In this document: positions 5,016-60,495 of the stretch, one piece after another
How positions within the stretch are numbered: position 1 is the first letter of the stretch
Layout of the letters: each line of letters starts with the position of its first letter
DNA from: Gammaproteobacteria bacterium
GTDB lineage: Bacteria; Pseudomonadota; Gammaproteobacteria; GCA-001735895
Reading direction: 5' to 3'
Length of the DNA stretch: 64,000 nucleotides
NCBI GenBank assembly: GCA_030066085.1
Contig: JASJCI010000031.1
Coordinates: 39,626 to 103,625 of the forward strand
The notes under the pieces: generated by a model
The model's input: only the letters and a program-made list of their open reading frames with translations
What the model was told of the DNA's origin: nothing
Database searches by the model: none
Translations under genes and position numbers: made by a program

Positions 5016-5020
5016 CGGCC

Positions 5021-5935: not shown

Positions 5936-5970
5936 GCTTCGGCAAAGCCGGGAAGCCGGCGTCATTGCGG

Positions 5971-6012
5971 ACCCGAAGGACCCAGCTACCCGAAGGACCC
6001 AGCTACCCGAAG
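5971..6012. repeat. 17-bp tandem direct repeat ACCCGAAGGACCCAGCT x2.5
   Basis: seen directly: acccgaaggacccagct acccgaaggacccagct acccgaag, between xerC and hslV. Confidence 0.8.
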
Positions 6013-6116
6013 TGCACGAGTACCCGGAGGGCACTAGAGCGCGGCGAAGCATTCTCCCGCCCCGTGGCTCGCGCTCAGACCCGGACGACGAATATCGACC
6101 GCGACGACCCGAAGTG

Positions 6117-6144
6117 CTTGCATTTGAGGGTCGCGGCTATATAT
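6117..6144 (+). promoter_or_regulatory. putative sigma32-type heat-shock promoter of hslVU
   Basis: CTTGCA, then 14 nt, then CTATATAT; resembles CTTGAA-N13-15-CCCCATnT about 40 nt upstream of hslV. Confidence 0.3.
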
Positions 6145-6179
6145 CTTTCCGCCAAAGGCAGACAACCCGGGGCTATAGC

Positions 6180-6719
6180 TTGCAACAGTTCGACGGCACG
6201 ACGATTCTCTCCGTGCGCCGCGGCAACCGTGTCGTCATCGGTGGTGACGGCCAGGTCAGCCTCGGCAACACGATCATGAAGGGCAATGCGCGCAAGGTAC
6301 GCAGGCTCTACAAGGACCGGGTCATTGCCGGTTTTGCCGGCGGCACGGCCGACGCGTTCCTGCTGTTCGAACTGTTCGAGGGCAAGCTCGAACAGCATAA
6401 CGGCCAGATGACCCGTGCCGCGGTCGAGCTGGCAAAGGAGTGGCGCTCGGATCGTGCGCTGCGCCGCCTCGAGGCCCTGCTGTGCGTGGCCGATGCCACG
6501 GCGTCGTTGATCATCTCCGGTAACGGCGACGTGATCGAACCCGAGGACAGCCTGATGGCGGTGGGTTCGGGCGGCGCCTACGCGCAGGCCGCGGCCCGCG
6601 CGATGCTGGATACCACCGAACTCGACGCGCGCGAGATCGTCGAACGTGGCCTGCAAATCGCCGGCAGCATCTGCGTTTACACCAACCAGAACCACACTTT
6701 CGAAGAAATTAGCTACTAG
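6180..6719 (+). CDS. hslV: ATP-dependent protease subunit HslV
   Basis: strong identity to HslV ([10 protein letters not shown]...GGTADAF...SGNGDV...GSGG); only in-frame start close to the catalytic Thr is the TTG at 6180. Confidence 0.85.
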
Positions 6720-6748
6720 TGGACAGCAAGTTGATCAACCAGTCGCCG

Positions 6749-8068
6749 ATGACCCCGCGTGAGATTACGCAGGAACTCGACAATCACATCATTGGCCAGG
6801 ACGACGCCAAGCGCTCGGTCGCGATTGCGCTGCGCAATCGCTGGCGTCGCCAGCAGGTCGCCGAAGAGCTGCGCAACGAAATCACGCCCAAGAATATCCT
6901 GATGATGGGACCGACCGGCGTCGGTAAAACCGAGATCGCCCGCCGGCTCGCACGCCTCGCCAACGCGCCGTTCATCAAGGTCGAGGCTACCAAGTTCACC
7001 GAGGTCGGTTACGTCGGCCGCGATGTCGAATCGATCATTCGCGACCTGGTGGACGTATCGGTCAAGCAAATGCGTGAAGCGGAGGTTGCGCGCGTGCGCC
7101 ATCGCGCCGAGGACGCCGCCGAGGAAAAGGTGCTCGACGCGCTGTTACCGCGGCCCAACGAATTCGCCGCGGAAGCCGACAGCGGCCAGGGCGAGGGTAC
7201 GCGGCAGAAATTCCGCAAGATGCTGCGCGAGGGCAAACTCGACGACCGTGAAATCGAGGTCGACCTGCAGATGCCCAACGTCGGCGTCGAGATCATGGCG
7301 CCGCCGGGCATGGAAGAGATGACCAACCAGCTGCAGGGGCTTTTTCAGAACTTCGGCGGTGGCAAGAGCCGCACCCGCAAGCTGCGCGTCGAGGACGCGC
7401 TCAAAATGCTGACCGACGAAGAAGCCGCCAAGCTGATCAACGAGGAAGAACTCAAGCTCACCGCGCTGGAAAACGCCGAGCAGAACGGCATCGTTTTCAT
7501 CGACGAAATCGACAAGGTCGCGCGGCGCCAGGAAACCAGCGGTGCCGACGTGTCGCGTGAAGGCGTGCAGCGCGATCTGCTGCCGCTGGTCGAGGGCTGC
7601 ACCGTGTCGACCAAGGCCGGCATGATCAAGACCGACCACATCCTGTTCATCGCCTCGGGCGCGTTCCACGTGTCCAAGCCCTCCGACCTGATCCCGGAAC
7701 TGCAGGGCCGCCTGCCGATCCGGGTCGAGCTGTCGGCGCTGACCGTTGAAGATTTCGTGCGCATCCTGCGTGAACCCAACGCTTCGCTGACCGAACAGTA
7801 CACCGCGCTGATGGAAACCGAGGGCGTCAGCCTCGAGTTCACCGACGACGGACTCGCGCGCATTGCGCAGGTGGCCTTCCAGGTCAACGAGAAACAGGAA
7901 AACATCGGCGCGCGCCGGCTGCATACCGTCATGGAGCGGTTGCTCGAAAAAGTCAGCTTCGAGGCCACCGACATGGTCGAGGAAAGCGTGACGATCGACG
8001 CCGCTTACGTCAACGAACATCTCGGCGAACTGTCGCTGGACGAAGACCTGTCGCAATACATACTCTGA
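6749..8068 (+). CDS. hslU: ATP-dependent protease ATPase subunit HslU
   Basis: MTPREI...[21 protein letters not shown], Walker A GPTGVGKT; ATG 6749 preferred over GTG 6719 by alignment to E. coli HslU. Confidence 0.9.
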
Positions 8069-8427
8069 TGAAACCAACCACGATCAACCTGCACAAGATC
8101 TCGCGCGTACTCGAACTGACCTTCGACGACGGTGCCCATTTCCGCCTGCCGGCCGAGTACCTGCGGGTTTACTCGCCGTCGGCCGAAGTCCAGGGCCACG
8201 CGCCGGGGCAGGAAGTGCTGCAGGTCGGCAAGGAAGACGTCGCGATCGAAAATATCGAACCGATCGGGCACTACGCGATCAAGCTGGTGTTCGACGATAA
8301 CCACGACTCCGGTATCTACAGCTGGTCTTACCTGCACGAACTCGGCAGCACCTACGAAGACCGCTGGCAAAACTACCTGCAACGACTCGAGGACGCCGGC
8401 CACAAGCGTAAAGCGGACGCCGGATAA
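8068..8427 (+). CDS. DUF971-family protein
   Basis: 119 aa; pattern LELTFDDG..F.LPAEYLRVYSPSAE typical of DUF971; follows hslU as in Pseudomonas. Confidence 0.7.
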   Translation: MKPTTINLHKISRVLELTFDDGAHFRLPAEYLRVYSPSAEVQGHAPGQEVLQVGKEDVAIENIEPIGHYAIKLVFDDNHDSGIYSWSYLHELGSTYEDRWQNYLQRLEDAGHKRKADAG

Positions 8428-8593
8428 CACGATCGTTGCGCAACCCGCGGCGTCGAAGCCATCTTCGCACCTCGTCGCGACAGCACAATTACCTCACTTC
8501 GGTGCCGGGCTCTTCGGGTCCGCAGTGACGAGTCACGCAGGCGGTCACGGCGTTTGAATGACGGGTGGGGCGGCTCGTGGTATCTTTGCCGCC

Positions 8594-9346
8594 ATGCAAA
8601 AAGACACGACCACCGATTTCGGTTACGAAGACATACCGGCCGACGAAAAGCAGGGCCGGGTCGGCGCGGTTTTCGATTCCGTGGCCGATCGTTACGACCT
8701 CATGAACGACGTCATGTCGTTCGGCATCCATCGCCTGTGGAAACGCTATACGCTCGAACTCTGCGGCCTGCGACCGGGACAGCATGTGCTCGACCTGGCC
8801 GGCGGTACCGGCGATCTCGCCTTGCAGCAGGCGCGCCGGGTAGGGCCCACGGGGCGGGTCGTGCTGGCCGACATCAACGCCGAGATGCTGGTTCGCGGTC
8901 GTGACCGGATGATCGACGCCGGCCTGGTCGCCAGTGTCGACAGCGTGTTGTGTAACGCCGAATCACTGCCGTTTGCCGACGCCAGCTTCGACCTGGTGAC
9001 GATTGCTTTCGGCCTGCGCAACGTCACCGACAAGGCCGCCGCACTGGCCTCGATGCAGCGGGTGCTCAAGCCCGGTGGACGCCTGTGCGTGCTGGAGTTC
9101 TCGCGCCCGCTGTGCGAGCCGCTGGAAAAAATCTACGACTTCTACTCGTTCCAGGTGCTGCCGCGACTCGGAGAACTGATCGCGCGGGACCGCGACAGTT
9201 ACCGCTACCTGGCCGAGTCGATCCGCCGTCACCCGGACCAGGAAACGCTGCGGCAAATGATCGCCGAGCAGGGCGGCTTCGACGAAGTGGAGGTGCACAA
9301 CCTCAGCGGCGGCATCGTCGCGCTGCACCGCGCGTTCAAGTACTAA
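8594..9346 (+). CDS. ubiE: ubiquinone/menaquinone C-methyltransferase UbiE
   Basis: near-colinear with E. coli UbiE ([29 protein letters not shown], ends ...[11 protein letters not shown]). Confidence 0.9.
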
Positions 9347-9352
9347 CCAGCG

Positions 9353-10009
9353 ATGATCACCGCGGAGCGCTCCGGTGCCAGCCTGTTCGATTCGTTGCAA
9401 GACGGCATGCTGACCCTGGCCGAAATCAGCGCCAACCGGCTGCTCGGCTACGACGCCGAGGCGCTGGCCGGCTGCCAGGCGCTGCAGGGCCGCGTCATCG
9501 CGCTCGAAATTACCGACCTCGAGTTCGAGACCTACTGTCATCCAGGCGGCTGGGGCATCAGGCTGTCGCGCAATCCGCCGGCGCGCGCTGCGGACGCGCG
9601 CATTTCAGGTCGGCTCGCGGCACTGGTCGAGCTGGTGACCAGCGACGACCAGGCCGCAACCTCGATGCGCGAGCGCGTGCGCTTCGACGGCGATGTCGCG
9701 GTGGCGCAGAAACTGCAGCGGATAATGGCCGCGCTCGATATCGACTGGGAAGAAATTCTCGCCGACTACACCGGCGACCGGGTCGCGTTTCAACTGCACC
9801 GGAGCCTGCGCCGCCTCGGCGACCGGGTACGAAAAAATCTCGATTCGGTCCTGATGACCAGTAGCGAGTACCTGCGCGAGGAGGCGCGCCTGTCACCGAC
9901 CCAGACCGAATTCGACCAGTTCTCGGCCGGCGTGACCCGCACCAAGCACGACGTCGCCCGCAGCGAGGCGCGCCTGCAGGCGCTGCTCGATCGCCTCGAC
10001 GACGCCTGA
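9353..10009 (+). CDS. ubiJ: ubiquinone biosynthesis accessory factor UbiJ (SCP2 domain)
   Basis: 218 aa between ubiE and ubiB, the conserved ubiE-ubiJ-ubiB arrangement; SCP2-like N-terminal region. Confidence 0.7.
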   Translation: MITAERSGASLFDSLQDGMLTLAEISANRLLGYDAEALAGCQALQGRVIALEITDLEFETYCHPGGWGIRLSRNPPARAADARISGRLAALVELVTSDDQAATSMRERVRFDGDVAVAQKLQRIMAALDIDWEEILADYTGDRVAFQLHRSLRRLGDRVRKNLDSVLMTSSEYLREEARLSPTQTEFDQFSAGVTRTKHDVARSEARLQALLDRLDDA

Positions 10010-25945: not shown

Positions 25946-28042
25946 ATGTCGCACGATCCCGGCTCCATTCCACTGCTCTCGCTCGACGCGATCGCGTTCG
26001 ATTCGGAAACCACCGGCCTCGATACGTCCAAGGCGCGCATGATCCAGCTCGGCGCGGTGCGCATCGTGCACGGCGAGGTAGTGGTGGACGCCAATTTCCA
26101 GGAATTGATCAACCCCGGCGTGCCGATCCCGGCGGAAAGCCAGGCGATTCACGGCATCAGCGACAGCGATGTCGCCGATGCGCGCGGCTTCGCCGACGTC
26201 GCCGCCGAATTCGACGCCTGGCGCGGTAATTCCGTGCTGATCGGCTATGCCAGCGGTTTCGACCTGGCGATGCTCAAGCGCGAGCGCGACCTCGCCGGCC
26301 TCGAGTGGCAGGCGCCGCGCTGCCTCGACGTGCGTTTCCTGGTCAACCTGCTGGCGCCCAACCTGCCCGATTTTTCGCTCGACACCATCGCCAGCTGGTC
26401 CGGGGTCGACATCAAGGGCCGCCACAGCGCGCTCGGCGACGCGATCGCTACCGCCGAGATTTTCGTCGCGCTGATCCCGCGCCTGCGCGAGGCCGGCATC
26501 CGCACGCTGGCCGAGGTCGAACGCGCCTGCGACCGTTTCAGCGAATCCAGCATGCGCGAGACCCAGATCGGCTGGCACGACCTCAACGAGGCGCGCCGTT
26601 CGCGCACGGTCATGGCGCGTATCGACAGTTTTCCCTACCGCCACCGCCTGCGGGACCTGATGAACAGTCCGCCAATCCTGGTGCCCGGATCCATGTCGCT
26701 GCGCGAAGCGCTGGCGGAGATGATCGATCACGAGGTCAGCTCGCTGTACGTCAAGCCGCTCGAGCAAGGCGGTGATACCGGCATCCTGACCGAGCGCGAT
26801 ATCCTGCGGCGGTTCCGCCAGGATGGCGAGGAAGCGTTTGCGCTGCGCGTGCGCGAGGTCGCGGTTTTTCCGCTCGCGAGCCTGCCGGCGGAGGCCTTCG
26901 TCTACCGCGCCATCGCGCGCATGAAACGCATGCACGTGCGCCATCTCGGCGTACACGATTATCGCGGCCGCATCATCGGCGCGCTGTCGGCACGCGATCT
27001 CTTGCGCCAGCGCGCCGACGACGCGATCCAGCTCGGCGACGACATCATGGCCGCCAAGACCGCGGGGCAGATGGCCGCGGTGTGGGGCAAGATTACCCTG
27101 GTCGCGAAAAGCCTGGTGGCCGAGGACGTCGACGCGCGCGATATCGCCGCGGTGATCTCGCGCGAGCTTTGCGCGCTGACCCGCCAGGCCTGCGTAATTG
27201 CCGAGCACATGATGCCGAGCCCGCCGCCGCGCAAGTACGCGCTGCTGGTACTCGGTTCCGGCGGCCGCGGCGAGAGCCTGCTGGCAATGGACCAGGACAA
27301 CGCCGTGGTCTATGCCGATGCCGAGGAAGACGACGCTGCCGACGAGTGGTTCGAAGCTTTCGGCAAACACGTCGCGGACATACTCGACGAGGCCGGCGTT
27401 CCCTACTGCAAGGGCGGCATCATGGCCAGCAACGCGGAGTGGCGCATGTCGCTCAAAGCCTGGAAAAAAACGGTCAAGCAATGGATCAAGCGCAAGTCGC
27501 CGGAAGACATTCTCAACTGCGATATCTTTTTCGACGCGGTACCGGTGCACGGCGACTTCAAACTCGCCAACAAGCTGCTCGACAGGGCGTTCGAAATCGG
27601 CGGCAGCTCCGGCCTGTTCATCAAGCTGATGTCGATCAACGCCTGCAAGAACGGGCCACCGCTCGGCCTGTTCGGCCGCTTCAAACTCGACAACGGCCGC
27701 ATGGATTTGAAGATGGGCGGCATCATGCCGCTGTTTTCGACCGCGCGTACGCTGGCCATTACCCATGGTATTCGCGCACAGTCGACCCCGGAGCGCCTCG
27801 CCGCCGTCGGCCGCGAGCTCGGCAAGATGGAGACCACGCTGGAGAACCTGGGCGAGGCCCACCGGATCATATTCCACGCCATCCTGGAACAGCAGCTGCT
27901 CGATCTGGAAGCCGGCATACCGCTGTCGAACCGGGTCGCGCCGAACAGCCTCAACTCGGCCATGCGCGACCAGCTGAGCTGGGCGCTGGAACAGGTGCCG
28001 AACGTGTCCAACCTGCTGGGTGACCCGCTCTCGCGCGGCTGA
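25946..28042 (+). CDS. DnaQ-like DEDDh 3'-5' exonuclease :: tandem CBS :: DUF294 nucleotidyltransferase-type fusion protein
   Basis: 699 aa from ATG 25946; N-terminus FDSETTGLD...HGISDSD...HSALGDA (PolIII epsilon-like exo motifs I-III); middle CBS pair; C-terminal half matches DUF294/DUF294_C (LGSGGRGE...DQDNAVVY). Confidence 0.8.
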   Translation: MSHDPGSIPLLSLDAIAFDSETTGLDTSKARMIQLGAVRIVHGEVVVDANFQELINPGVPIPAESQAIHGISDSDVADARGFADVAAEFDAWRGNSVLIGYASGFDLAMLKRERDLAGLEWQAPRCLDVRFLVNLLAPNLPDFSLDTIASWSGVDIKGRHSALGDAIATAEIFVALIPRLREAGIRTLAEVERACDRFSESSMRETQIGWHDLNEARRSRTVMARIDSFPYRHRLRDLMNSPPILVPGSMSLREALAEMIDHEVSSLYVKPLEQGGDTGILTERDILRRFRQDGEEAFALRVREVAVFPLASLPAEAFVYRAIARMKRMHVRHLGVHDYRGRIIGALSARDLLRQRADDAIQLGDDIMAAKTAGQMAAVWGKITLVAKSLVAEDVDARDIAAVISRELCALTRQACVIAEHMMPSPPPRKYALLVLGSGGRGESLLAMDQDNAVVYADAEEDDAADEWFEAFGKHVADILDEAGVPYCKGGIMASNAEWRMSLKAWKKTVKQWIKRKSPEDILNCDIFFDAVPVHGDFKLANKLLDRAFEIGGSSGLFIKLMSINACKNGPPLGLFGRFKLDNGRMDLKMGGIMPLFSTARTLAITHGIRAQSTPERLAAVGRELGKMETTLENLGEAHRIIFHAILEQQLLDLEAGIPLSNRVAPNSLNSAMRDQLSWALEQVPNVSNLLGDPLSRG

Positions 28043-28281: not shown

Positions 28282-29292
28282 ATGAACGAACAGGCAACAC
28301 CAGCACCGGCGGCACTATTAGACGTGGGCAGGTTTGATCCGAAGTGCGCCGAATCGTCCTGGACACTTCCGTCAACGTGGTATTTCGATGAACAAATCTA
28401 CGCCCTTGAACAAAGCCGCATATTCAGCAAGACGTGGTGTTACCAGTGCCATAAGGGGGATGTAGCCAGTCCGGGCGATCGTTGTTACGGCAATGTGGCA
28501 GGTCAACCCATTGTCATCTGGCATGAGCAAGACCATGGCCTGCATGCCATAAATCTTACCAATCAGCGAGCCATATCTATCGAAACTTATGCTGGTTTCG
28601 TGTTTGTGAACCTGGATCCCGCTGCGTTGCCGCTAAGGCAACAGGCCGGAAAGTTCATCGATGACATGTATCGCTGCTGTCCACGATTGGACGAGCTGGT
28701 TCGCGTGCAGCGTATCGAGCGTGAAGTCGGCGCCAACTGGAAAACCCTGATCGATAACAACCACGAGTGCTATCACTGCGCCTTCAATCACAAGTCGTTG
28801 ATGCAGCTTGTCGACTACGAAAGCCAGGCGGTCTGGAGTGATGACGGCATTACCTTTAGTCACGAGGTCAAGCGCAAACAACTCGACAATCCAGCTTATG
28901 CGCTAAATCCCGACGAACTCAGGCAGGACTCACTATTTGGCTTCATTTGGCCAACACTGATCCCGCTGTGGTTCCCGGGCTCCCCAAGCGCGGTCTTGTT
29001 TCAGGTGATACCGAATGGCCCTGAAAGCAGTATCGCACGGCATGATTTTTATTTTCTCGATACAGGGATGAGCAGCCAGGAACAGGATTTTGTTGATTAT
29101 ATAGACAAGGTACTGGTACCCGAGGACGTGACTTTGTGCGAATCGGTGCAGAGAGGACTGCGGTCGCGTGGTTACCGACAGGGCAAGCTGATTGTCGATC
29201 GCTCACGACCTGATTTCTCCGAGCACCACGTGCATTTTTTTCAGCAGTTTGTCTATCAGGCGTTACTCGAAGCCAAAGCAGCAGTTCCATAG
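28282..29292 (+). CDS. aromatic-ring-hydroxylating oxygenase alpha-subunit homolog with degenerate (ligand-less) Rieske domain
   Basis: 336 aa; N-terminal Rieske-fold region aligns to RHO alpha subunits but all four ligands are replaced (CxH box read as LTNQRA, CxxH box read as ETYAGF); catalytic-domain mononuclear Fe motif retained (NWKTLIDNNHECYHCAFNH); lower GC than flanks. Confidence 0.6.
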   Translation: MNEQATPAPAALLDVGRFDPKCAESSWTLPSTWYFDEQIYALEQSRIFSKTWCYQCHKGDVASPGDRCYGNVAGQPIVIWHEQDHGLHAINLTNQRAISIETYAGFVFVNLDPAALPLRQQAGKFIDDMYRCCPRLDELVRVQRIEREVGANWKTLIDNNHECYHCAFNHKSLMQLVDYESQAVWSDDGITFSHEVKRKQLDNPAYALNPDELRQDSLFGFIWPTLIPLWFPGSPSAVLFQVIPNGPESSIARHDFYFLDTGMSSQEQDFVDYIDKVLVPEDVTLCESVQRGLRSRGYRQGKLIVDRSRPDFSEHHVHFFQQFVYQALLEAKAAVP

Positions 29293-29517
29293 CGGGCAAC
29301 CGGCAAATCCCTTCTTTATTCATGGAATCATGTGACAGCAGGCAATACCGCCGTTGACAGTGGCCAAATTGTGTCTGTTTGCTTGCCAGGTATCTGGCGA
29401 GATCCAAAGACTTTAGAGGCCATCTTTTTCCTCAACATCACTCCTCCAACGGGCGTATGATTAACTGGACCGGCTGTATCCGCCGGCACGTGAATTTCAG
29501 GGGCCGAGGACAGCGGA

Positions 29518-30330
29518 ATGGGCAACATTTCTGATCCACCGGGGGGTAGCTACGCCTTCAGCCAAAATCCTGACCGTGCGCGTGAGCTGGACCGCCTGCG
29601 CCACCAGGCGCTGGCCGCGTGGCCGATGGAGGAGGCCTGGCTAAAGAATCGGGGCCTGGCGGACGGGATGCATGTGCTCGATATCGGCTGCGGGCCGGGG
29701 TTCGTCAGCGAGAAGCTCGCACGGCTGAATCCTGCCGGGGTGACCGTCGGTCTCGAGCCGGATCCCGAACTTGCGCACCTCGCTGGCAAGCGCTTCGACG
29801 CTATCCCGGGACTGTCGCTGCACCAGGGCAGCCTGGCACATAACCATCTCCAGGAGAGTTATTTCGATCTCGCTTATGCGCGGTTCGTAGCGCAACACTT
29901 CGGGTCTCCGCAGGCTGAAATGGCACATATTTTTCGACTCCTCAAGCCCGCTGGTCAGGTTGTGCTGGCGGACGTGGACGACGGCCTGACCCTGGTGTAT
30001 CCCGAGCTGCCGGAGCTACTCGAGGTCATGCGGCTTTCGGACAAACTCCAGGCCGAGGCGGGCGGGGATCGCCGGGTTGGACGAAAGTTACCCGCATTAC
30101 TTACCGCGGCAGGCTTCACCGATGTCGGCTTCGACATTTTGCCTTTCACGAGTCGCCAGCTCGGCCGTCACGCCCTGTTCGACCTGGCATGGTCATTTCG
30201 TCTGCACCGGATCGAACAACTTACCGGCGCCGACAACAAGCGCCTGGTCGAAAAAGTGAAGGACTTCTTCAGCAGCCAGGACTGGTATGGCGTCACCTGC
30301 GTGATAGCCGCATATGGTGTCAAACAGTGA
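29518..30330 (+). CDS. class I SAM-dependent methyltransferase
   Basis: 270 aa; motif I VLDIGCGPGFVSEKLA, motif post-I/II present; lower-GC island. Confidence 0.8.
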   Translation: MGNISDPPGGSYAFSQNPDRARELDRLRHQALAAWPMEEAWLKNRGLADGMHVLDIGCGPGFVSEKLARLNPAGVTVGLEPDPELAHLAGKRFDAIPGLSLHQGSLAHNHLQESYFDLAYARFVAQHFGSPQAEMAHIFRLLKPAGQVVLADVDDGLTLVYPELPELLEVMRLSDKLQAEAGGDRRVGRKLPALLTAAGFTDVGFDILPFTSRQLGRHALFDLAWSFRLHRIEQLTGADNKRLVEKVKDFFSSQDWYGVTCVIAAYGVKQ

Positions 30331-31484
30331 CTGCGGTGGCGCCCGATGCACCGGAGCCGGTATCACTCGCCCGCACGTCGACGCAGCGCGAGGCGGTGTA
30401 TCGACTTAGATACGACGTGTACATGCGCGAGCTCAGAAAGGGGTTCCTGGGCGATGTGGATCACGAGCACTGCAGGGTTCGGGATGCGGAGGACGAACAA
30501 CAGGACGTCAGCATCTTCTACACCGGGACCGAAGAGGACATGACCGGCTCGCTGCGGCTGCAGGTCTGGGATCCTGGCCGGATTCCGGACGACATCGTGC
30601 AACGTTTCTCACTGCACCTGTTCCCCGGTATCGAGGCGTACAAGGTGAGCGAGGCGGCACGACTGGTTGTAAGACCGGGCATGCGCGGCGGGCGTCTGCT
30701 GGACTCGCTCGCCCTCGCCGCGTGCGAGCATGCAGTGGTCAACCACGGTGTCTTCGTCTGTTTCCTGTACTGTTCGCCAGGTCTTGTGCGTACCTTTATG
30801 CGTCTCGGCTTTCAGCCTTACCCGGGCTACGTGATACCGAACGAGGACGGGATTCGGCTACCCATGTTCGTAGTGTTAACCGACCTCGAGCATCTCGATG
30901 CTGTCGGCTCACCGCTGGCACCGCTCATGGCACGCCACCTTTCCGCCGACACCGCGCCTCCTGTCAGGTCTGTTTTCCTGCAGGCAATGAGCGATCAGCC
31001 ATACCACTACGAAACCCGTGCGGCGCGGGTCTGGCAGGAAGTGCGAGACCAGCTTCAACCTGGTCCCGGGAACCGCTCTCCCTTGCTGGAGGGGATCTCG
31101 GCCAGCGATACCGAGGTGCTTTGCCACTGCGGCTTTATCATGGAGATCCCCGCCGACAAGGTGGTCATAAGAGAGGGCCTGGTGGAACGGGAGCTCTACC
31201 TGGTTTTACGCGGCGAATACGAAGTTCGCATAGGAAACAGGGTGCTCGGGGTGCTGGGCGTGGGTGACGTGCTGGGAGAGATGTCGTTTTTCGATAATCC
31301 GGGCGAACGTGTGGTCACGGTCCGCTCGTTGACAGCCGGACGCGTCATGGTACTGGAGCGCCATTTCCTCGAACACCTGGCTCCCTCCCATCCGAGACTG
31401 GCGTCTCGCCTGCTAATGAACCTTGGGCGCATCCTCTCGCGACACCTGGCCATCGCGCTGCGGACCTGCCCGGGCGTAGACTAG
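30327..31484 (+). CDS. LuxI/FeeM-type N-acyl amino acid synthase domain fused to a C-terminal cyclic-nucleotide-binding (CAP-type) domain
   Basis: GTG start overlaps the MTase stop (GTGA). N-terminal half matches Acetyltransf_5/autoinducer-synthase-like NAS signature (AVYRLRYDVYMRELRKGF...DEQQDVSIFY...SEAARLVV...RLGF). C-terminal about 120 aa is a cNMP-binding beta-barrel (LYLVLRGEYEV...GVGDVLGEMSFFDNPGERVVTVRSLTAGRVMVL). Confidence 0.65.
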   Translation: MTAVAPDAPEPVSLARTSTQREAVYRLRYDVYMRELRKGFLGDVDHEHCRVRDAEDEQQDVSIFYTGTEEDMTGSLRLQVWDPGRIPDDIVQRFSLHLFPGIEAYKVSEAARLVVRPGMRGGRLLDSLALAACEHAVVNHGVFVCFLYCSPGLVRTFMRLGFQPYPGYVIPNEDGIRLPMFVVLTDLEHLDAVGSPLAPLMARHLSADTAPPVRSVFLQAMSDQPYHYETRAARVWQEVRDQLQPGPGNRSPLLEGISASDTEVLCHCGFIMEIPADKVVIREGLVERELYLVLRGEYEVRIGNRVLGVLGVGDVLGEMSFFDNPGERVVTVRSLTAGRVMVLERHFLEHLAPSHPRLASRLLMNLGRILSRHLAIALRTCPGVD

Positions 31485-32356
31485 GGCCTGTTCGGTCTCA
31501 GCATCTCGAGCAGAGATCCGACGTCATTTGTTGCCAACCCGAGATCTACCGCCCTGCCGAAGAGTTGCCGGGCAAACGCGGACACATCGGTGCGGTATCC
31601 AGTTTCCTGCTGGAACTCGATCATCAGGTCCGCAATCTGGACCCATACCCCGATCGGCGCATCCGATGAATCGAGGCCACCGTTTTCGATTTTGCGGAGA
31701 CTCCCCATCAGCGCTTGCGCGTCATAGGCGGTATTTGTCGGCAAGTCTCGCACCAGCTCCTGCAACGATATGCCCGCTGCCTCACAGAGTGCTGCGCCAT
31801 TCATGATGCCGATGGTCATACCGAGCGATCCAGATAAGGCCGCCAGGTTCAGAGCAGACGATTTTGCGGGATCGGATCCCAGGTACCTGGCCTGCGGTGT
31901 ATATTCCTTGAGCAACGGTTCAGCCGCATCGTAGGCGGCTTTATCGCCGGCCAGCAGCAAGGGAAATTCATCACCACCTATCTGGTTTGGATAGGCCACT
32001 ATCTCACCATCCAGGTAGGCGGCACCGGCCCGTTTTGCCCAGTCACTGGCTGATCGGGACAGCGTGGGTGAACCACTGGAAAGCTGGATCAGTATCCGCC
32101 CCTTTAGCGCAGCCATGCACTCCGGGGTAGCCAGTAACGACGCCGTTGTTGCGTAATCACTTACGCAAACAACGACCATGGGGCTCGCGGATATTGCTTC
32201 GGCCGGCGTTGCTGCAACGGTGACATTGCCGACAGCGAGCGGCAGCGCCTTGTCGCTGGTGCGGTTCCAGACAACGATTTCGCGACCGAATTTCGCCGCG
32301 GTATCAGCCAGGGCAAACCCCATGGCACCCAACCCGATGAAAGAAACTTGCGCCAT
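31481..32356 (-). CDS. NAD(P)-dependent beta-hydroxyacid dehydrogenase family (HIBADH/6PGDH-NAD-binding) oxidoreductase
   Basis: 291 aa; MAQVSFIGLGAMGFALA dinucleotide-binding motif; convergent 4-nt overlap with the preceding gene. Confidence 0.8.
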   Translation of the reverse strand: MAQVSFIGLGAMGFALADTAAKFGREIVVWNRTSDKALPLAVGNVTVAATPAEAISASPMVVVCVSDYATTASLLATPECMAALKGRILIQLSSGSPTLSRSASDWAKRAGAAYLDGEIVAYPNQIGGDEFPLLLAGDKAAYDAAEPLLKEYTPQARYLGSDPAKSSALNLAALSGSLGMTIGIMNGAALCEAAGISLQELVRDLPTNTAYDAQALMGSLRKIENGGLDSSDAPIGVWVQIADLMIEFQQETGYRTDVSAFARQLFGRAVDLGLATNDVGSLLEMLRPNRP

Positions 32357-32452
32357 TCCGATATCCCCTCGTACACCCCGCCAGTCTCGACCAGCATGAC
32401 GCCCGGTCGAGTGACATGCAAGCCCGCATAATCAGGGGGGATCGATATCGAT

Positions 32453-32480
32453 TGATTTATCTATCGTGATTTATCTATCG
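32453..32480. repeat. 14-bp tandem direct repeat TGATTTATCTATCG x2 in promoter region of the dehydrogenase gene
   Basis: seen directly, about 100 nt upstream of the minus-strand start at 32356; AT-rich, candidate regulator-binding direct repeat. Confidence 0.55.
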
Positions 32481-32639
32481 GCCGGGTGTCCGCCAGCCTC
32501 GTACGAGTGTCGGCCCGGTAGACGGCGTGTCCCGGGTTTCTGCAACCGGCGACACCCTGTCGGGCACTATTTTTTCAGCCGCCTGTTTTGCCAGTCACTG
32601 ACAACCAATAATCGCATCGATTTCCCGGGCTTCTGTGAT

Positions 32640-33551
32640 TTAGCGGCACTCGGTTACCAGCTTCTTTACCAGCATCCTGCGCCGGTCTCTGAGCTCTTCA
32701 CCCAATGACGCCGTGTAACCCCGGCTCATGCGGTCATCGATGCTTTCGATTTCGGCCTGGTAGTTTTCCCTGCAGCGCTCGATTCGTGCCTGCTCTTTTT
32801 CGTTCTTCTTTCGTTCGCGCGCCTGGTCCCGCTCCTGGTTTCCCGCGTCGTCGCCTTGCAAGCCATAGCCAGCCGCGTTGCCCGAATTATCGATCGGGTA
32901 CTGTCGTGCTGCGCCCTGGTCGAACAGCTGCTGCAGTCGCATCGCCTCTTTTCGTTGTTCATCATCGCAACTAAAGATCATTTGCTGGAATTCTCGCGGA
33001 AAATCCTCACATGAAACCGTGCCGAAAGCCTGCGCGTTGCACCTGGCAACGGTGAGCTGTGCAAGCCTGTCGGGTTGCATGGTTTCCGAGTGTTTGAACG
33101 AGTAGACGTAGTTGATTACTCCGAGGGTACTTCGCGAAATGGAACTGGCGCCGCCATAGCGATCGAACAGCTGCTGAGTGTCGAGGCCGGAACGCATGTG
33201 TCCGAAAATCACCTGCGAAAACGCGCCGGCAAACTTGCAGTCTTCCATCTGCACCGGTTTTTTGCCGTTCTTCAGCAGCTTGTCGGTTTTCTCGTTTTTT
33301 CTACACGGTTGCTGGGAGTACGTGACGTCGCCATTTTCATCGATGCACTTGTAGGTTGCCGCCATGACATCCGCTGACAACGACAGCACAAGCAGCATTG
33401 AATAAACAGCCGCCAGGGCAACTGTCGACGACCCCTTAAAGCTGCGACTCAGTTCGCGGGATACAGGCAACCCGGACACTTTTTTTGCTGGCTGCAGGTT
33501 CACGAAAGCAGCGGCCTCCTGATTACTACCGGAGCGCGACCTGTCGATCAT
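32640..33551 (-). CDS. DUF4124-domain exported protein
   Basis: signal peptide (MLLVLSLSADVMA) then DUF4124 motif ATYKCIDENGDVTYSQQPC; Cys-rich middle; charged coiled-coil C-terminus; true start is probably the internal Met at about 33398. Confidence 0.55.
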   Translation of the reverse strand: MIDRSRSGSNQEAAAFVNLQPAKKVSGLPVSRELSRSFKGSSTVALAAVYSMLLVLSLSADVMAATYKCIDENGDVTYSQQPCRKNEKTDKLLKNGKKPVQMEDCKFAGAFSQVIFGHMRSGLDTQQLFDRYGGASSISRSTLGVINYVYSFKHSETMQPDRLAQLTVARCNAQAFGTVSCEDFPREFQQMIFSCDDEQRKEAMRLQQLFDQGAARQYPIDNSGNAAGYGLQGDDAGNQERDQARERKKNEKEQARIERCRENYQAEIESIDDRMSRGYTASLGEELRDRRRMLVKKLVTECR

Positions 33552-33642
33552 GGGCGTGATACTCCGGGGGCAAAAACAGATTTGCTTCTTGCTGGATTAT
33601 AGTCCCTGTCCCGATGCCTGCCCCGGGCCGAGTTCAGGCCGG

Positions 33643-34926
33643 CTAGACAGATCCGAGCATTTCCTCGACAGCAGCGATTTCGGACCTGGATTCCTCGATA
33701 AAACTGATGCTGTCGCGGGCGGTGAATCCAAGCTGCAGTTTCAGGAACGCGGGCATCTTCGAAAGCGCCGGCAGACGTTTCGTGGCCGATGTGCCCAAAA
33801 GGCTGTAGTAGCGGGCAACCAGCACCAGGTCGCACAGGTCGGCCTGGTCGCGATGGTTGCGAAACCAGTTGCGTGATTCTTCGCCAACCGTGACGATTTC
33901 TTCACCCAGGTTCCACCGGAAGAGCAACATCCCATTGATCTGGGCATGCAGATCACGAATGGTTTGATCGAGCGCGGCATCGTCGCCGTAGAGATCGCTG
34001 TGCTCCTGCGCATAGTTCAGGATGGCGATGATACCGAGGTCGCTTAACAGGCCCGCCATCTGCGCCATTTCCGGGTCGAATTTGCCGGAGCGCGCGGCAA
34101 GCACGCGACTGAATGCCGAGATCCTGCGGCTGTTTTTCCACAGCAGCTGCATGCGTTTTTGCATGGCGCTCGATTTCGACCGGAACAGTTGCGTGGCCGC
34201 GTAAATCATGATCTGTTTTCGAATGACGTCCATGCCCATGCGCACTATGGCCTGCTGCAGGGTTTCGATTTGCGCATTTCCGCGGTACAGGGCGCTGTTC
34301 GCGGTCTTGAGCAGCTTGGCCGATATTGCGGGATCGGACTGGATCAGCCCGGAAACCTGCGCCATGTCGTAATCATCATCGGCAAACAGCTGCTGGATCT
34401 TGTGCACCACGTCGGGCATGATCGGCAGCGTGATGCTGCCATTGCTGATATCCATGCACAGGCTGATGGTGAGTCGATTGGCTTCTTCGGACTGCTCGAT
34501 CAGCTCGACATCCATTTGTCCGTTGGTCGCCTCGTCGACCAGCGAGAGCTCGGTCAACAGGTCATGGGGAATCCGGAGATATTCGACAGGCGAAACAGCT
34601 TCGACGTCATACAGGCTCGGGCGAATCTTTGCCACGGGCTCGAGATTGCCGTCATTTTCCACCGGCACAGGGCGCTCGGTGCCGTCGCCGTCGCGGCAAA
34701 TGGCTTCACCCTGCAAAAAGTACAGGCTGTAATCGCCCGTATCGCCCCGGGCTATGATGCGCTGCCTCGGCTCCGCAACCTCGGTATCGAGCCTGTTGGC
34801 GAGCATATCCAGCTGTTCGTCGCTGAACAGGACCAGGTCCCTGATACGCCTGAAGACCGAATGGTCGAGCTGTTTGCTGCTGTCTTGCATATCCGCATTC
34901 CGTATACACACCATCACCTTCGGCAT
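33643..34926 (-). CDS. cyclic-nucleotide-binding-like domain :: HDOD signalling protein
   Basis: about 427 aa from ATG at 34926; N-terminal CAP-like barrel (LVLFSDEQLDMLANRLDTEVAEPRQRIIARGDTGDYSLYFLQGEA); C-terminal HDOD (LPIMPDVVHKIQQLF...VIRMGMDVIRKQ). Confidence 0.65.
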   Translation of the reverse strand: MPKVMVCIRNADMQDSSKQLDHSVFRRIRDLVLFSDEQLDMLANRLDTEVAEPRQRIIARGDTGDYSLYFLQGEAICRDGDGTERPVPVENDGNLEPVAKIRPSLYDVEAVSPVEYLRIPHDLLTELSLVDEATNGQMDVELIEQSEEANRLTISLCMDISNGSITLPIMPDVVHKIQQLFADDDYDMAQVSGLIQSDPAISAKLLKTANSALYRGNAQIETLQQAIVRMGMDVIRKQIMIYAATQLFRSKSSAMQKRMQLLWKNSRRISAFSRVLAARSGKFDPEMAQMAGLLSDLGIIAILNYAQEHSDLYGDDAALDQTIRDLHAQINGMLLFRWNLGEEIVTVGEESRNWFRNHRDQADLCDLVLVARYYSLLGTSATKRLPALSKMPAFLKLQLGFTARDSISFIEESRSEIAAVEEMLGSV

Positions 34927-35041
34927 GACAGGTGATCTCACTGTCTGTATCGGCTTTGTCCGGCCGGACTTGAAAACCGGTTTGCGACGGCGATAGCCGG
35001 GTAAGCGGCGGTTTTGGATGCCTCCGCTATTTCGGCCCGGG

Positions 35042-35920
35042 TTATCTCGACTTGCCGAGAACGACGTAGTTGCCGAGCAGCACGAGCAGAAAACCAAACC
35101 CGGCGCGCGGGGTCCACTGGTAATCCTCGAACAGGGTCGACAATCCCAGCGCAATCACCGGAAACAGGACCGCGGCGTAAGCCGCGCGGTCGGCGCCGAT
35201 ACGCCCGACCAGCGTCAGGTACGAGCCAAAGGCGAGGATCGATCCGAACAGGGCGAGGTAGAGCAGCGATACGGTGTATGCCGGCGCCGGATCAAAATTG
35301 AACGGTACCCCGCTGAACAGCGCGTACACGAACATGATCGCGGCGCCATAACTCATTCCCCAGGCGTTGGTCTGGATCACCGGCATGCCGGCGCGCTGGT
35401 TGCGCGCGGAGATGATGTTGCCGACCGACGCGAGCCAGGTGGCGCCGAGACACATCCACAGGCCCCGCCAGGTGTCGGCGCTGGCATCCACCGCGCTGAC
35501 TTCCGACCAGAAAACCGTTGCAATACCGCCGATCCCGATCGCCGCGCCGATAACGACACGGGCACTGACCCGGCTGCCGAGGAACAGCGCGCCGTTGACG
35601 ATATTGAGCAGGATCACGGTAGAAAACAACAGCGCGATGATGCCCGAGGTCAACAACCCGGTCGCCCAGTAGAACACGAGGTAATTGGTGGAAAACAGGA
35701 ACAGTCCCAGCAGCGCCATGTAGCCGTGTTGCACCCGGGAATACTTCAACGGGCGCCCGGTCAGCAGGCAAAACAGCAGCAGGATTACCGCCGCCAGCGC
35801 AAAGCGGTAAACCAGCGATACCTCCTCGGCGACGATACCGAGCTGGAACCTGATCGCGAACCAGGTGGAGCCCCAGATCAGCACCGCGGCCAGGTAGAGA
35901 CTGACCGAGTGGGTGTACAA
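35042..35920 (-). CDS. DMT-superfamily (EamA/RarD-like) transporter
   Basis: 10-TM duplicated EamA pattern; probable TTG start near 35920 just downstream of the kinase gene stop; the long track ORF is an over-extension. Confidence 0.7.
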   Translation of the reverse strand: MYTHSVSLYLAAVLIWGSTWFAIRFQLGIVAEEVSLVYRFALAAVILLLFCLLTGRPLKYSRVQHGYMALLGLFLFSTNYLVFYWATGLLTSGIIALLFSTVILLNIVNGALFLGSRVSARVVIGAAIGIGGIATVFWSEVSAVDASADTWRGLWMCLGATWLASVGNIISARNQRAGMPVIQTNAWGMSYGAAIMFVYALFSGVPFNFDPAPAYTVSLLYLALFGSILAFGSYLTLVGRIGADRAAYAAVLFPVIALGLSTLFEDYQWTPRAGFGFLLVLLGNYVVLGKSR

Positions 35921-51612: not shown

Positions 51613-55096
<3,484 letters not shown>

Positions 55097-55113
55097 CGAA
55101 TCCCCGTACGGAA

Positions 55114-56214
55114 TTACAACCGCATCGGCATGACCACGTACAGGCTGGATTCGTCCTCGCTGTCGTTGATCACGCAACTGCTGTTGGCATCCTTGAGCTT
55201 GATCTTGACCTTGTCTGACTCGAGTACGTTGAGTACGTCGATCAGGTAGGTTACGTTGAAACCAATCTCCATGTCGGCCTCGTCGTAACTGACCGGAAGT
55301 TCCTCTTCCGCTTCTTCCTGGTCCGGATTGTTTGCCTGGATAGACAGGTTGCCCGGTGACAGTACCAGGCGAATACCGCGGTACTTTTCGTTCGACAAGA
55401 TCGAGATTCGACTCATGGACTGTTTCAGTACATCGCGCTCGACCTCGAGCATACGATTGCCGTCTAGCGGAATAACTCGCTGGTAATCGGGGAACTTGCC
55501 GTCAATCAGCTTGGTCGTGAACACGAGCGATCCCAACTCGACCCGCAGGTGATTCGGGCTCAGCACTATCCGCGCTTCCTCTTCGCTCCCGTCGAGTAAC
55601 CGCGACAGCTCGAGTACGGCTTTACGCGGAATGATCACCTGGCGCTCTTCACCAATGCCCGTATCCATGGCTACCTCGCTCATGGCGAGCCGATGACCAT
55701 CCGTAGCGACGAGCCGAAGGCAGTCGGATGAAATCTCCATCAAGATACCGTTCAGGTAGTAGCGCACGTCCTGCTGGGCCATCGCGAAACCGGTTTTTTC
55801 GAACAGGTTCTTGAACCTTTTCCGCGGTACGCCAAAACTGTGTTGGGCGTCAATCTCATCGAGGCCCGGGAAATCGCTGGCGGGCAGGGACGCGAGGGTA
55901 AAACGACTGCGGCCCGAAGTGAGCGATACCTTGTTGTCCGCGATCGCGAGATTGATACTCGCGCCTTCCGGAAGTGCCTTCGAGATATCGAGCAGCTTTC
56001 GCGCTGGAATAGTAGTATCGAAATCTTCCGCCGTATCCGCGGTTAATGCAGCAACCATTTCGATTTCAAGGTCCGTTGCGGTCAAACGTAAGTCACCACC
56101 CGTAGACTTCAGTAGGACATTGCCCAGTATCGGCAAGGTCTGCCGCCGTTCCACGGCTCCGATTACCTGTTGCAAGGGCGCAAGAAGATCTTCTCTTTTA
56201 ATAGTTGTCTTCAT
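55114..56214 (-). CDS. dnaN: DNA polymerase III beta sliding clamp
   Basis: 366 aa three-domain clamp. Confidence 0.9.
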   Translation of the reverse strand: MKTTIKREDLLAPLQQVIGAVERRQTLPILGNVLLKSTGGDLRLTATDLEIEMVAALTADTAEDFDTTIPARKLLDISKALPEGASINLAIADNKVSLTSGRSRFTLASLPASDFPGLDEIDAQHSFGVPRKRFKNLFEKTGFAMAQQDVRYYLNGILMEISSDCLRLVATDGHRLAMSEVAMDTGIGEERQVIIPRKAVLELSRLLDGSEEEARIVLSPNHLRVELGSLVFTTKLIDGKFPDYQRVIPLDGNRMLEVERDVLKQSMSRISILSNEKYRGIRLVLSPGNLSIQANNPDQEEAEEELPVSYDEADMEIGFNVTYLIDVLNVLESDKVKIKLKDANSSCVINDSEDESSLYVVMPMRL

Positions 56215-56340
56215 TTATCTATATAAGGTTACTGTTTTTAACAATGGCTTTAACACTGTATAACTAAAATAAGTCTTTTACTTTCAACGACTTATTTCCC
56301 AATAGCCGGCTAGAAAACTGTCCGAAACCGTTTTCCAACC

Positions 56341-56395
56341 TGTGGATAACAGCGGGATAAATATGTCTGCCTGAATTATCAAATGCTTATCCACA
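56341..56395. promoter_or_regulatory. pair of inverted consensus DnaA boxes (TGTGGATAA ... TTATCCACA) in dnaA-dnaN intergenic region
   Basis: exact 9-mers at 56341-56349 and 56387-56395. Confidence 0.6.
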
Positions 56396-56425
56396 GGTCG
56401 TCCAGCGAATGTTACGCTTTTCGCG

Positions 56426-57742
56426 TCAATTACTCAGCATCCGTGCGAGGATTTCGAAATCCTCGTCGATTCTGCGATCCTCCTGGCGTAACTCGTCTAC
56501 CTTGCGGCAGGCATGAAGCACCGTTGTATGGTCCCTGCCGCCGAAGGCACTGCCGATTTCGGGCAAACTGTGTCTCGTCAGTGCCTTGCACAGTGCCATG
56601 GCTATTTGCCGTGGCCGCGTGATCGAGCGATTTCGCCGGCTCGACAACAAATCGGCCACGCGGATCTTGAAGTATTCCGCGACCAGTTTCTGGATGTTAT
56701 CGATAGTGATTGGCTTGTCCTGTACCGCCAGCAGCTCCTTGAGTGCCTGGCGGGCAAAATCCTGTGTAATCGGTTCACCGGTAAACCGGGCATGTGCCAC
56801 CACTCGTTTCAAAGCGCCCTCCAGCTCCCTGATGTTGGACTTGAATCGCTCGGCGATAAAAAAAGCGACGTCATCCGGCACATCGGCGTCGGCCTGTTCG
56901 GCCTTGCTATTGAGAATGGCCACGCGGGTTTCGAGGTCGGGCGGTTTTATATCGACCGCGAGCCCCCAGCCAAGACGTGAGCGGATGCGGTCCTCGAGGC
57001 CTTCGATCTCCTTCGGAAAACGGTCGCAGGTGATCACCATTTGTGCATGGGCTTCGTACAGCGAGTTGAAAGTGTGGAAAAACTCTTCCTGCGAGCGGCT
57101 TTTGTCGGCCAGGAACTGGATATCATCGATCAGCAGTGCATCCAGGCTGCGGTAGGAATTCTTGAAATCGTTCATGCGGCTGTGCTGCAAGGCCTTGACC
57201 ATGTCGGACACGAAACGCTCGCAATTGACGTAGAGAATATTCGCCTCGGGATTGCTCTCCCTGATCTGGTTGCCAATGGCGTGCATCAGGTGGGTTTTGC
57301 CGAGACCTACGCCACCGTAAATGTACAGGGGGTTGTACTCCGAGCCTGGATTGTTGCCGACCTGGATCGATGCGGCTCGCGCCAGCTGGTTCGACTTACC
57401 CTCGACGAAGTTGCGAAAACGTTGCGCATCGTTCAGACCCGATGATCGATAGGCACGCGGTGGCGGGGCGTTGACCCCTGCTTCTTCAGGCTCCGGGCGG
57501 CTTTGCGATCCGATCGCGAGGCTTACCGAGATGGACTTGGTGTCGTCGAGGCTGGTGACCAGCTCGCGAATGCGGTCGAGGAAGTGCTTGCGCACCCAGT
57601 CCATGACGAACCGGTTCGGCGCCAGCAAGCGCAATGTGTTCATTTCCTGTTCCGCCTGCAGGGGCAGGATCCAGGTGTTCAACTGCTGTTCGCTTATTTC
57701 CCCCTCGAGGCAGGCCACGCACTGTTGCCAGATCGAATTCAA
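56426..57742 (-). CDS. dnaA: chromosomal replication initiator protein DnaA
   Basis: 438 aa; AAA+ ([10 protein letters not shown]), C-terminal DnaA-box-binding HTH. Confidence 0.95.
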
Positions 57743-58617: not shown

Positions 58618-58838
58618 TTGGCCTGATTCGCCTATACCGCTACCTGCTAAGCCCCCTGCTCGGCCCGAGCTGCCGTTATACGCCGACCTGCTCGGAATAC
58701 GCGCAGCAGGCGATAGCCCGGCATGGCGCCTTGCGCGGTAGCTGGCTGGCGCTGAAGCGACTCGGCAGTTGCCACCCATGGGGCTCCAGTGGCTACGACC
58801 CGGTTCCCGATACGCGGCAGGACCATCATCATGGATAA
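58602..58838 (+). CDS. yidD: membrane protein insertion efficiency factor YidD
   Basis: 78 aa; [27 protein letters not shown] signature. Confidence 0.85.
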
Positions 58839-60495
58839 TACCCGGCTGTTCCTGTTTGCCGCGCTGGTTTTCGTAGGCATGCTGCTGTGGCAACAGTGGC
58901 AGATCGATTACGGCCCGCAAGCGGAGCCACCGGCACAAGTCAGCGCCGGCGATACATCATCGGGAGCCGAGTCTGGTGATCTGCCGATTACCGATGATCT
59001 GCCGGAGCTTTCCGACGAGGTAAGTACCGCGGGAACATCGACCGAGACCGGTCAGGCTGCGCTCCCACCAGCACGCCTGGTCCTTGTCGATACCGACGTG
59101 ATCGAAGCGCAAATCGATACTCGTGGCGGCGTCGTGCGCTCGCTGAAGCTGAAAAACTACCCGACCTCGCTCGAACAACCCGATGACTGGCTGGAGCTGG
59201 TGCATAGCGAAACCGATACGCTGCACGTACTGCAAAGCGGACTGCGCAACAAGGAAGAGCTGGCGCCTACTCACCACAGCATGTTCAGCGTCGCGCAAAC
59301 GGAGTTCCGCCTGGCCGAAGGCGAGGATGAACTCGTCGTGCCCATGACCTGGGAGAAGGACGGTATCCAGGTCAGCAAGGAATATCGATTTCGCCGCGGC
59401 GACTACCTTGTCGACGTCATTCACAGGGTCGCCAACAACAGTGATAACGAATGGCAGGGCAGCCAGTACCGCCAGATCACGCGTGCACGTCCACTCGAGA
59501 CATCGCGAATCCTCTACACCTACACCGGTGCGGTGTATTACAACGAAATCGACAAGTACGAGAAAATCGATTTCGACGACATGGAAGACAGCCAGCTGAA
59601 GTTCGAGGCCGACGGCGGGTGGATTGCGATGATCCAGCATTACTTCCTGTCTTCCTGGATCCCGGCGCAGGATGAGAGCAACCTGGTCTACAGTATTGCC
59701 AACACGCGCCGTCAGCCCGCCAGCTACACCATCGGCCTGCGCTCGCAGAACCGCGTCGTGCCCGCGGGGGGCAATACGGAATTCCTGAGCCAGCTGTTCG
59801 TCGGGCCCAAGCTGACGCAGCGACTGGAAGAGATTTCTCCCGGTCTCGAATTGACCGTTGACTATGGTGTGCTGACTTTTCTGTCGAAGCCGCTCTACTG
59901 GCTGCTTTCCTGGTATCACGGTTTTGTCGGCAACTGGGGTTTGGCGATTATTTTACTGGTGTTTACGGTCAAGGCAGTGTTCTACAAGCTGTCCGAGACC
60001 AGCTACCGCTCGATGGCAAAAATGCGCAAGGTCAGCCCGCGGCTGCAAACGTTAAAGGAACGTTACGGTGACGATCGCCAGCGCATGAACCAGGAAATGA
60101 TGAAGATGTACAAGGAGGAGAAGATCAATCCGCTCGGCGGCTGCCTGCCGATCCTGATCCAGATCCCCGTCTTTATTGCCCTCTACTGGGCCCTGCTCGA
60201 AAGCGTCGAGCTGCGCCAGGCGCCTTTCGTCCTCTGGATCGAAGACCTCTCGGTGATGGATCCCTACTTCGTACTGCCGATCCTGATGGGTATCAGCATG
60301 GTTATCCAGCAGCGTCTCAACCCGCCGCCGCCAGACCCGATCCAGGCCAAGATCATGATGGCGCTGCCGTTCGTGTTCACCGTGTTTTTCGCATTCTTCC
60401 CGGCCGGGCTGGTGTTGTACTGGGTCGTCAACAACGTGTTGTCGATAGCCCAGCAATGGGTCATCACCAAACGTATCGAGGCGGGCGGCAACTAG
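58831..60495 (+). CDS. yidC: membrane protein insertase YidC
   Basis: ATG 58831 ([14 protein letters not shown]...); large periplasmic domain, then conserved 5-TM core. Confidence 0.9.

Follow-up and report, generated by a model that had tools for sequence, protein, structure and literature searches.

The window (the whole stretch of 64,000 nucleotides analysed here) carries on its minus strand a gene for a two-domain protein, with a CNB-like beta-barrel at the N-terminus and an HDOD domain behind it, and upstream of the gene a putative promoter of the sigma-28 (FliA) type. The gene and the elements that belong to it are:

33643..34890, minus strand: CNB-like::HDOD coding sequence, 415 aa (from the open reading frame, the conserved ATG, homologue lengths and purifying selection)
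33655..34488, minus strand: HDOD domain with C-terminal helical extension, residues ~135-412
34039..34044, minus strand: codons S283-D284, in place of the HD dyad (AGLLSDLG here, AGLIHDLG in HD-intact paralogues; alignment and motif table)
34132..34134, minus strand: codon N253, in place of the first His of H...HD (LWKNS here, LWKHS in HD-intact paralogues; alignment and motif table)
34543..34863, minus strand: CNB/CAP-type beta-barrel, residues ~10-116
34609..34638, minus strand: family-specific loop P85-V-A-K-I-R90-P91-S92-L-Y94, where a phosphate-binding cassette would lie (conservation and predicted secondary structure)
34898..34901, minus strand: Shine-Dalgarno-like GGAA, 7 nt before ATG 34890
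34973..34947, minus strand: putative sigma-28 (FliA)-type promoter TCAAGTCC-N11-GCCGATAC, the end of its -10 box 56 nt before ATG 34890
34973..34966, minus strand: -35 box of this promoter
34954..34947, minus strand: -10 box of this promoter

The reading frame is closed by a TAG stop at 33643-33645 and has a maximal extent of 33643..35154; the first-pass annotation had read it from ATG 34926, as a protein of 427 aa. The gene is real, and its start belongs at ATG 34890. A database search returned ~150 homologues, nearly all of them 415 aa long and aligning from Met13 of the 427-aa reading, and in an alignment of the upstream DNA of six orthologues ATG 34890 is invariant and ATG 34926 is not conserved; the gene therefore spans 33643..34890. 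The same alignment contains a GGA(A/G) ~8-11 nt 5' of ATG 34890, in which G110, G111 and A112 are invariant. ATG 34926 was rejected as a start for its lack of conservation and for lying only ~20-30 nt past the -10 box, and the latter also speaks against ATG 34914. An identical protein is found, by database search, in the uncultured-gammaproteobacterium MAG assemblies GCA_029979885.1 and GCA_029979825.1.

Across all 415 codons the orthologues align without gaps. The N-terminal 120 codons have a dN/dS of 0.12-0.17 and the HDOD domain one of 0.05-0.09 (ratios that are approximate, dS being saturated). Gapless alignment and low dN/dS together show that both the N-domain and the HDOD domain are translated and constrained, which settles the doubt, raised at first pass, as to whether the N-terminal region is translated at all.

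The HDOD assignment holds: PF08668 matches with 140.7 bits against a Pfam cut-off of 22.9 (E = 5.4e-41), it matches 86/86 relatives as well, and this part of the protein has the all-helical HD-like fold. Both histidines of the H...HD metal site are missing, their places being taken by N253 and S283, and the protein does not match PF01966 (HD), though 47/86 family members do. In nearly all members at ≥50% identity the first His is replaced by N, D or S and the His of the HD dyad by S, C or N; relatives at ≤50% identity keep LWKHS...GLIHDLG and match PF01966, with one lower-identity outlier, L040, that has also lost both histidines. Because both are lost, we regard the HDOD domain of the window clade as a non-enzyme.

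That the protein might even so be an active metal-dependent phosphohydrolase, regulated by its N-domain, would find its precedent in the paralogous clades, which retain H...HD and match PF01966 and many of whose HD-intact members adjoin a glycerophosphodiester phosphodiesterase (GDPD) gene, and in the structural homologue 3hc1, whose two iron ions are coordinated by five His and one Asp (PMC12075610). We consider such activity extremely improbable here, since the substitutions at the two histidines extend to the whole window clade, the PF01966 match is absent, and HDOD domains have been reported to lack phosphodiesterase activity (PMC6543031). The HDOD structures 3hc1 (Geobacter sulfurreducens) and 3i7a and 3m1t (Shewanella amazonensis) are single-domain proteins whose function is not known; compared with 3hc1, the protein described here has lost the H...HD histidines and adds an N-terminal CNB-like domain.

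The protein could also be an effector that binds c-di-GMP or another dinucleotide in a degenerate, HD-GYP-like HDOD pocket, as was once proposed for SadB. This reading we hold to be quite unlikely: the protein lacks the metal ligands with which HD-GYP enzymes hold the phosphates, the window clade has no conserved GGDEF, EAL or PilZ neighbour, and SadB of Pseudomonas aeruginosa itself does not bind c-di-GMP, mutations in its pocket being without effect; it is a proteolysis adaptor that needs no ligand in the pocket (PMC12075610). The SadB pocket (9qzk) is similarly depleted, and any likeness would be one of mechanism only: identity is 16%, the N-domain of SadB is YbaK/ProRS-like and that of the present protein is a CNB barrel, so that it is not an adaptor of the SadB type (YbaK-like N-domain plus HDOD), and the SadB target AmrZ/Lon cannot be assumed for it. 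Taken together, the lost metal site, the very low dN/dS and the comparison with SadB point to a non-catalytic, interaction-based role.

The N-domain (residues ~10-116) is an eight-stranded beta-barrel with flanking helices. PF00027 scores 16.6 bits in this protein, below its Pfam cut-off of 27.5; it matches 24/86 relatives at E≤0.01, and the cut-off is passed only by the remote full-length relatives P0225 (34.1) and P0245 (29.4). A profile of the family matches the domains of PKG and PKA-R at E ~1e-6. On the strength of the PF00027 relatives and these profile matches, the CAP-like barrel is real and homologous to CNB domains, and the initial domain reading of a CAP-like barrel followed by HDOD holds, by fold as well as by PF08668, with PF00027 remaining under its cut-off in this protein. 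Searching with a profile of the N-domain alone returned only fragments of the same family, and no other architecture with this domain was thus detected.

With canonical CNB domains (CRP/GlxR/Clr, PKA-R, PKG, Epac, HCN) the barrel shares its strands and the N-terminal helix, with sequence similarity in helix A and strands 1-4, and there the likeness ends: the profile alignment with CNB domains in the PDB stops near position 75, short of the cassette. The canonical cassette G-E-x-A...R-[ST]-A, with its short helix, is not found in the protein; the region reads EPVAKIRPS, is ~5 residues shorter, has P85-V86 in place of the G-E pair, and forms a P-x-A-x-x-R-P-S loop in which no helix is predicted at residues 87-94, between the strands at 82-86 and 95-98. 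P85 and P91 are invariant in the family down to 25% identity; A87, R90 and S92 are nearly invariant among closer members, but the conservation of R90 does not extend to the wider family. By its sequence, the N-domain is a distinct subfamily of the CNB fold for which binding of cAMP or cGMP cannot be assumed, and in the cassette region its closer likeness is to CNB-homology domains without cNMP binding (KCNH CNBHD, 5d1i).

A true cAMP/cGMP receptor, in which binding of a 3',5'-cyclic nucleotide to the CNB domain would be passed on to the HDOD output, is accordingly an unlikely reading, albeit one with several observations to its credit: the CNB fold is clear, remote members of the family do rise above the PF00027 cut-off, R90 and S92 are conserved about where the cassette has its Arg-Ser/Thr, and R90-P91-S92 could yet hold a cyclic phosphate. 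Against these stand the end of the similarity before the cassette, the exchange of G-E for P85-V86 in a shortened and helix-less loop, the restriction of invariance in the wider family to P85 and P91, the CNB folds without cNMP binding that figure among its good matches by structure (KCNH CNBHD 6syg and 4llo; Brucella "CNB-like" 5d1i), and an annotated neighbourhood in which no cyclase was noted.

The gene is an ordinary member of a large family without experimental characterisation. An exhaustive search at E≤1e-30 found 566 cluster representatives (clustered at 50% identity), from which it follows that the CNB-like::HDOD architecture is widespread; among the best 150 of these 566 most are full-length (~415 aa) with 26-35% identity, while a few are longer by ~270-300 residues at the N-terminus. 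Cluster names of the remote relatives are almost all empty, and a literature search found no paper that joins HDOD with a CNB domain or studies members of the family experimentally. The 63 loci taken from species-representative genomes come nearly all from MAGs of uncultured Gammaproteobacteria, often with several paralogues per MAG. The HD-intact paralogues from related Gammaproteobacteria share length, architecture and N-domain loop with the window protein at 40-50% identity, and the two groups are otherwise mirror images: the paralogues have H...HD, a PF01966 match, conserved synteny and no sigma-28-type motif, and the window clade the reverse.

The synteny in question is the order Zn-peptidase, GDPD, CNB::HDOD, CvfB, which surrounds the HD-intact paralogues in 17-19 loci and is not found around the His-less clades. 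Instances of this Zn_peptidase_2 - GDPD - CNB::HDOD - CvfB(S1_2) order are L009 (7254-10139), L010 (984-5093) and 17-19 of the loci L028-L061; in L009 and L010 it is adjoined by phosphate genes (PhoU, PHO4, a Na/Pi cotransporter, PhoBR, PstS). It is possible that the ancestral CNB::HDOD gene had a connection with phosphate or phosphodiesters.

Neither a second HDOD gene nor a paralogue or remnant of one was found in the window. In at least 4 of 9 orthologous loci, a stand-alone HDOD gene follows ~95 nt downstream of CNB::HDOD:

L005, 11344-12090: stand-alone second HDOD gene
L016, 11343-12278: stand-alone second HDOD gene
L017, 11348-12271: stand-alone second HDOD gene
L018, 11290-12273: stand-alone second HDOD gene

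The copy in L005 matches both HDOD and HD (PF01966); in the window, the place of this gene is occupied by a DUF4124 gene. CNB::HDOD and the stand-alone HDOD protein could form a pair, either of pseudo-enzyme and enzyme or as a heterodimer. Elsewhere, L011 has four HDOD-family ORFs in 9 kb (4273-8125). Upstream, the clade A loci L005, L012, L016, L017 and L018 share divergently oriented ORFs of matching sizes (~4784-9891), which in L005 encode a periplasmic protein of the phosphonate-binding type, an MTTB-family methyltransferase and a DAO/GCV_T dehydrogenase; the window copy of CNB::HDOD lies in a different neighbourhood, with EamA, APH and an ABC transporter.

The first-pass annotation had taken the protein for the putative signal receiver of an island, suggested to share a ligand with a cNMP-domain synthase said to lie next to it. 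The genes concerned are:

30327..31484, plus strand: FeeM/GNAT-type N-acyl synthase with C-terminal CNB domain
31481..32356, minus strand: reductase gene, between the synthase and CNB::HDOD
32640..33551, minus strand: DUF4124 gene, between the reductase and CNB::HDOD

The two genes are indeed in the same region, but they are not adjacent: the synthase is 2.2 kb away and on the opposite strand, with two genes intervening, and converges on the reductase gene. Its close partner is the SAM methyltransferase upstream, with whose stop codon it has a 4-nt overlap, the two being translationally coupled (29518-31484, plus strand).

In other genomes, synthase, methyltransferase, DUF4124, reductase and hydroxylase genes are found at 0/69 homologue loci, each flank being surveyed for up to 10 kb or as far as the contig reached; an 82%-identical orthologue is included, on a contig that spans only ~2-5.6 kb around the gene. 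Conversely, an HDOD gene lies within 9 kb of the synthase at 0/3 synthase loci from other genomes, and the methyltransferase is upstream of it at two of the three (L074, L076); at the third, L075, a neighbour of the synthase encodes a cNMP_binding-patatin protein. The synthase family is small (46 proteins) and without study. P0142 (667 aa) is a fusion of methyltransferase and synthase, and P0158 (661 aa) an apparent one, the FeeM part of which gives no Pfam match. The CNB domain of the synthase has no significant similarity to the N-domain of CNB-like::HDOD (BLASTP E = 0.73), and the ligand sites differ, the synthase keeping G-E...R where the other protein does not. Synthase and CNB::HDOD occur together only in the near-identical contigs L001-L004, four in number, which are ~100% identical and therefore amount to one observation.

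Reception of the product or ligand of the FeeM-type N-acyl synthase by CNB-like::HDOD, as a synthase-receptor pair in an island, is hence very unlikely. Both genes do fall inside a 5-kb span where GC3 is low, both proteins have a CNB-type domain, and all four contigs show the same arrangement; yet these contigs count once, the genes are on opposite strands with two others between them, the two CNB domains are unrelated at the sequence level and differ in the cassette, the conserved or fused partner of the synthase is the methyltransferase, and the CNB::HDOD gene carries its own conserved promoter. A pair of LuxI/LuxR-like logic, with conserved adjacent genes, is not what the 0/69 and 0/3 counts describe. 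In essence, the idea of a shared ligand rests on the arrangement in a single genome and is not supported, nor is the role of island receiver.

The stretch in question comprises six consecutive genes at 28282-34890, the first for the ring hydroxylase alpha subunit and the last CNB::HDOD, with a GC3 of 0.58-0.75 as against 0.76-0.86 in the flanks, and part of it may be of foreign origin. As a mark of a co-acquired island, the GC3 dip at 28.2-34.9 kb is weak, because CNB::HDOD has a GC3 of 0.75, at the upper end of the range and near the flanks, and composition varies widely elsewhere in the window. Directly upstream of the ring-hydroxylase gene, at 25946-28042 (plus strand), is a gene for a 698-aa protein made up of RNase_T (DEDD exonuclease), CBS, DUF294 and DUF294_C (putative nucleotidyltransferase). 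The chromosomal origin region, with gyrB, recF, dnaN and dnaA at 51613-57742 (minus strand) and yidC at 58789-60495 (plus strand), accounts for the low GC at 48-58 kb; CNB::HDOD is ~22 kb from dnaA and thus part of the core chromosome.

The most useful new feature of the locus lies outside the interval covered by the first-pass annotation, namely the sigma-28-type promoter, which in full reads TCAAGTCC-GGCCGGACAAA-GCCGATAC. Compared with the FliA (sigma-28) consensus TAAAGTTT-n11-GCCGATAA (PMC2859248, PMC12784957), the boxes match at 5/8 positions (-35) and 7/8 positions (-10) with exact spacing, and the -35 box carries C at position 2 (TCAAG vs TAAAG). Both boxes are invariant amid diverged DNA in the six aligned orthologue upstream regions, and TCAAGTyy-N11-GCCGATAn is present both in the window and in 9/9 other members of the clade (≥71% identity), its -10 box ending 56-58 nt ahead of the start codon. 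The upstream and neighbouring genes vary among these 10 promoter-bearing loci, and in every other clade the motif is absent upstream.

Matches of this quality have a background of 0.007 per 290 nt in the loci, and the exact core motif occurs once in the window against 0.04 expected. In 76 loci (~1 Mb) there are 14 exact matches, 13 of which precede a CNB::HDOD gene; the fourteenth lies 39 nt upstream of a gene for a methyl-accepting chemotaxis protein (L061, 8205..8180, minus strand). L061 (CAXMOZ010000032.1) is labelled as an Acidimicrobiia MAG, yet has the gammaproteobacterial synteny GDPD - CNB::HDOD - CvfB, and is probably mis-binned. A simple scan of 32200-35300 found no sigma-70 promoter-like site, and there is no convincing terminator between the genes; no fliA or flagellar gene was seen in the annotated parts of the window. 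As a phylogenetic footprint, the conserved boxes speak strongly for a promoter of the FliA type and suggest, with the chemotaxis-gene match in L061 as indirect support, that CNB::HDOD may depend on FliA; it is possible that they serve another sigma factor or a transcription factor.

The best reading, to which we give a probability of about 55%, is that CNB-like::HDOD acts as an adaptor, non-catalytic and modulated by a ligand, whose expression goes with that of the late flagellar and chemotaxis regulon. It would be a cytoplasmic signalling protein of two domains, with transcription from a sigma-28 (FliA)-type promoter of its own that moves with the gene from genome to genome; such a promoter would mean that the protein is made together with the late flagellar and chemotaxis proteins. 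The CNB-like barrel probably senses a small ligand, which need not be cAMP or cGMP given the helix-less, family-specific loop at the cassette position, and the His-less HDOD domain would be a non-catalytic interaction module that contacts a partner. Most likely, motility or the motile-to-sessile decision would be tuned through protein-protein contacts, with the N-domain setting the state. The stand-alone, HD-intact HDOD protein encoded ~95 nt downstream in orthologous loci is a candidate partner. The adaptor mechanism is here extrapolated from SadB, a protein with an unrelated N-domain, and the motility role and the control by a ligand are what promoter and barrel would suggest.

HDOD proteins recur as regulators of motility, among them GsmR, Cj0248, SadB and PFL_0554/PFL_5871 (PMC11004494), as well as PSPTO_4229 (PMC11813219), and this recurring genetic link between HDOD and motility agrees with a promoter of the sigma-28 type. 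Loss or overexpression of GsmR (REC-HDOD, Xanthomonas campestris), Cj0248, PSPTO_4229 or PFL_0554/PFL_5871 alters swimming motility or flagellar gene expression; their inputs are different from that of the present protein, being REC or none.

HDOD is a poorly understood signalling domain that occurs widely in bacteria. The analysis removes an attractive synthase-receptor story and puts in its place a testable clade of His-less HDOD proteins with a conserved FliA-type promoter, which directs attention to motility and chemotaxis phenotypes, to flagellar partners and to the stand-alone HD-intact HDOD gene. It also flags a distinct subfamily of the CNB fold, the conserved loop of which points to a ligand that is neither cAMP nor cGMP. 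As the organism is uncultured, the impact will be modest unless a cultured relative is found. A more far-reaching history can be put forward tentatively, in which an HD-intact gene was duplicated, the copy lost its metal site and was recruited to sigma-28 control, and the result would be a pseudo-enzyme adaptor in which a small non-cNMP ligand, recognised by a novel kind of CNB pocket (P-x-A-x-x-R-P-S), is coupled to a flagellar or chemotaxis output; if this were true, it would be the first HDOD family with a defined input, output and regulon.
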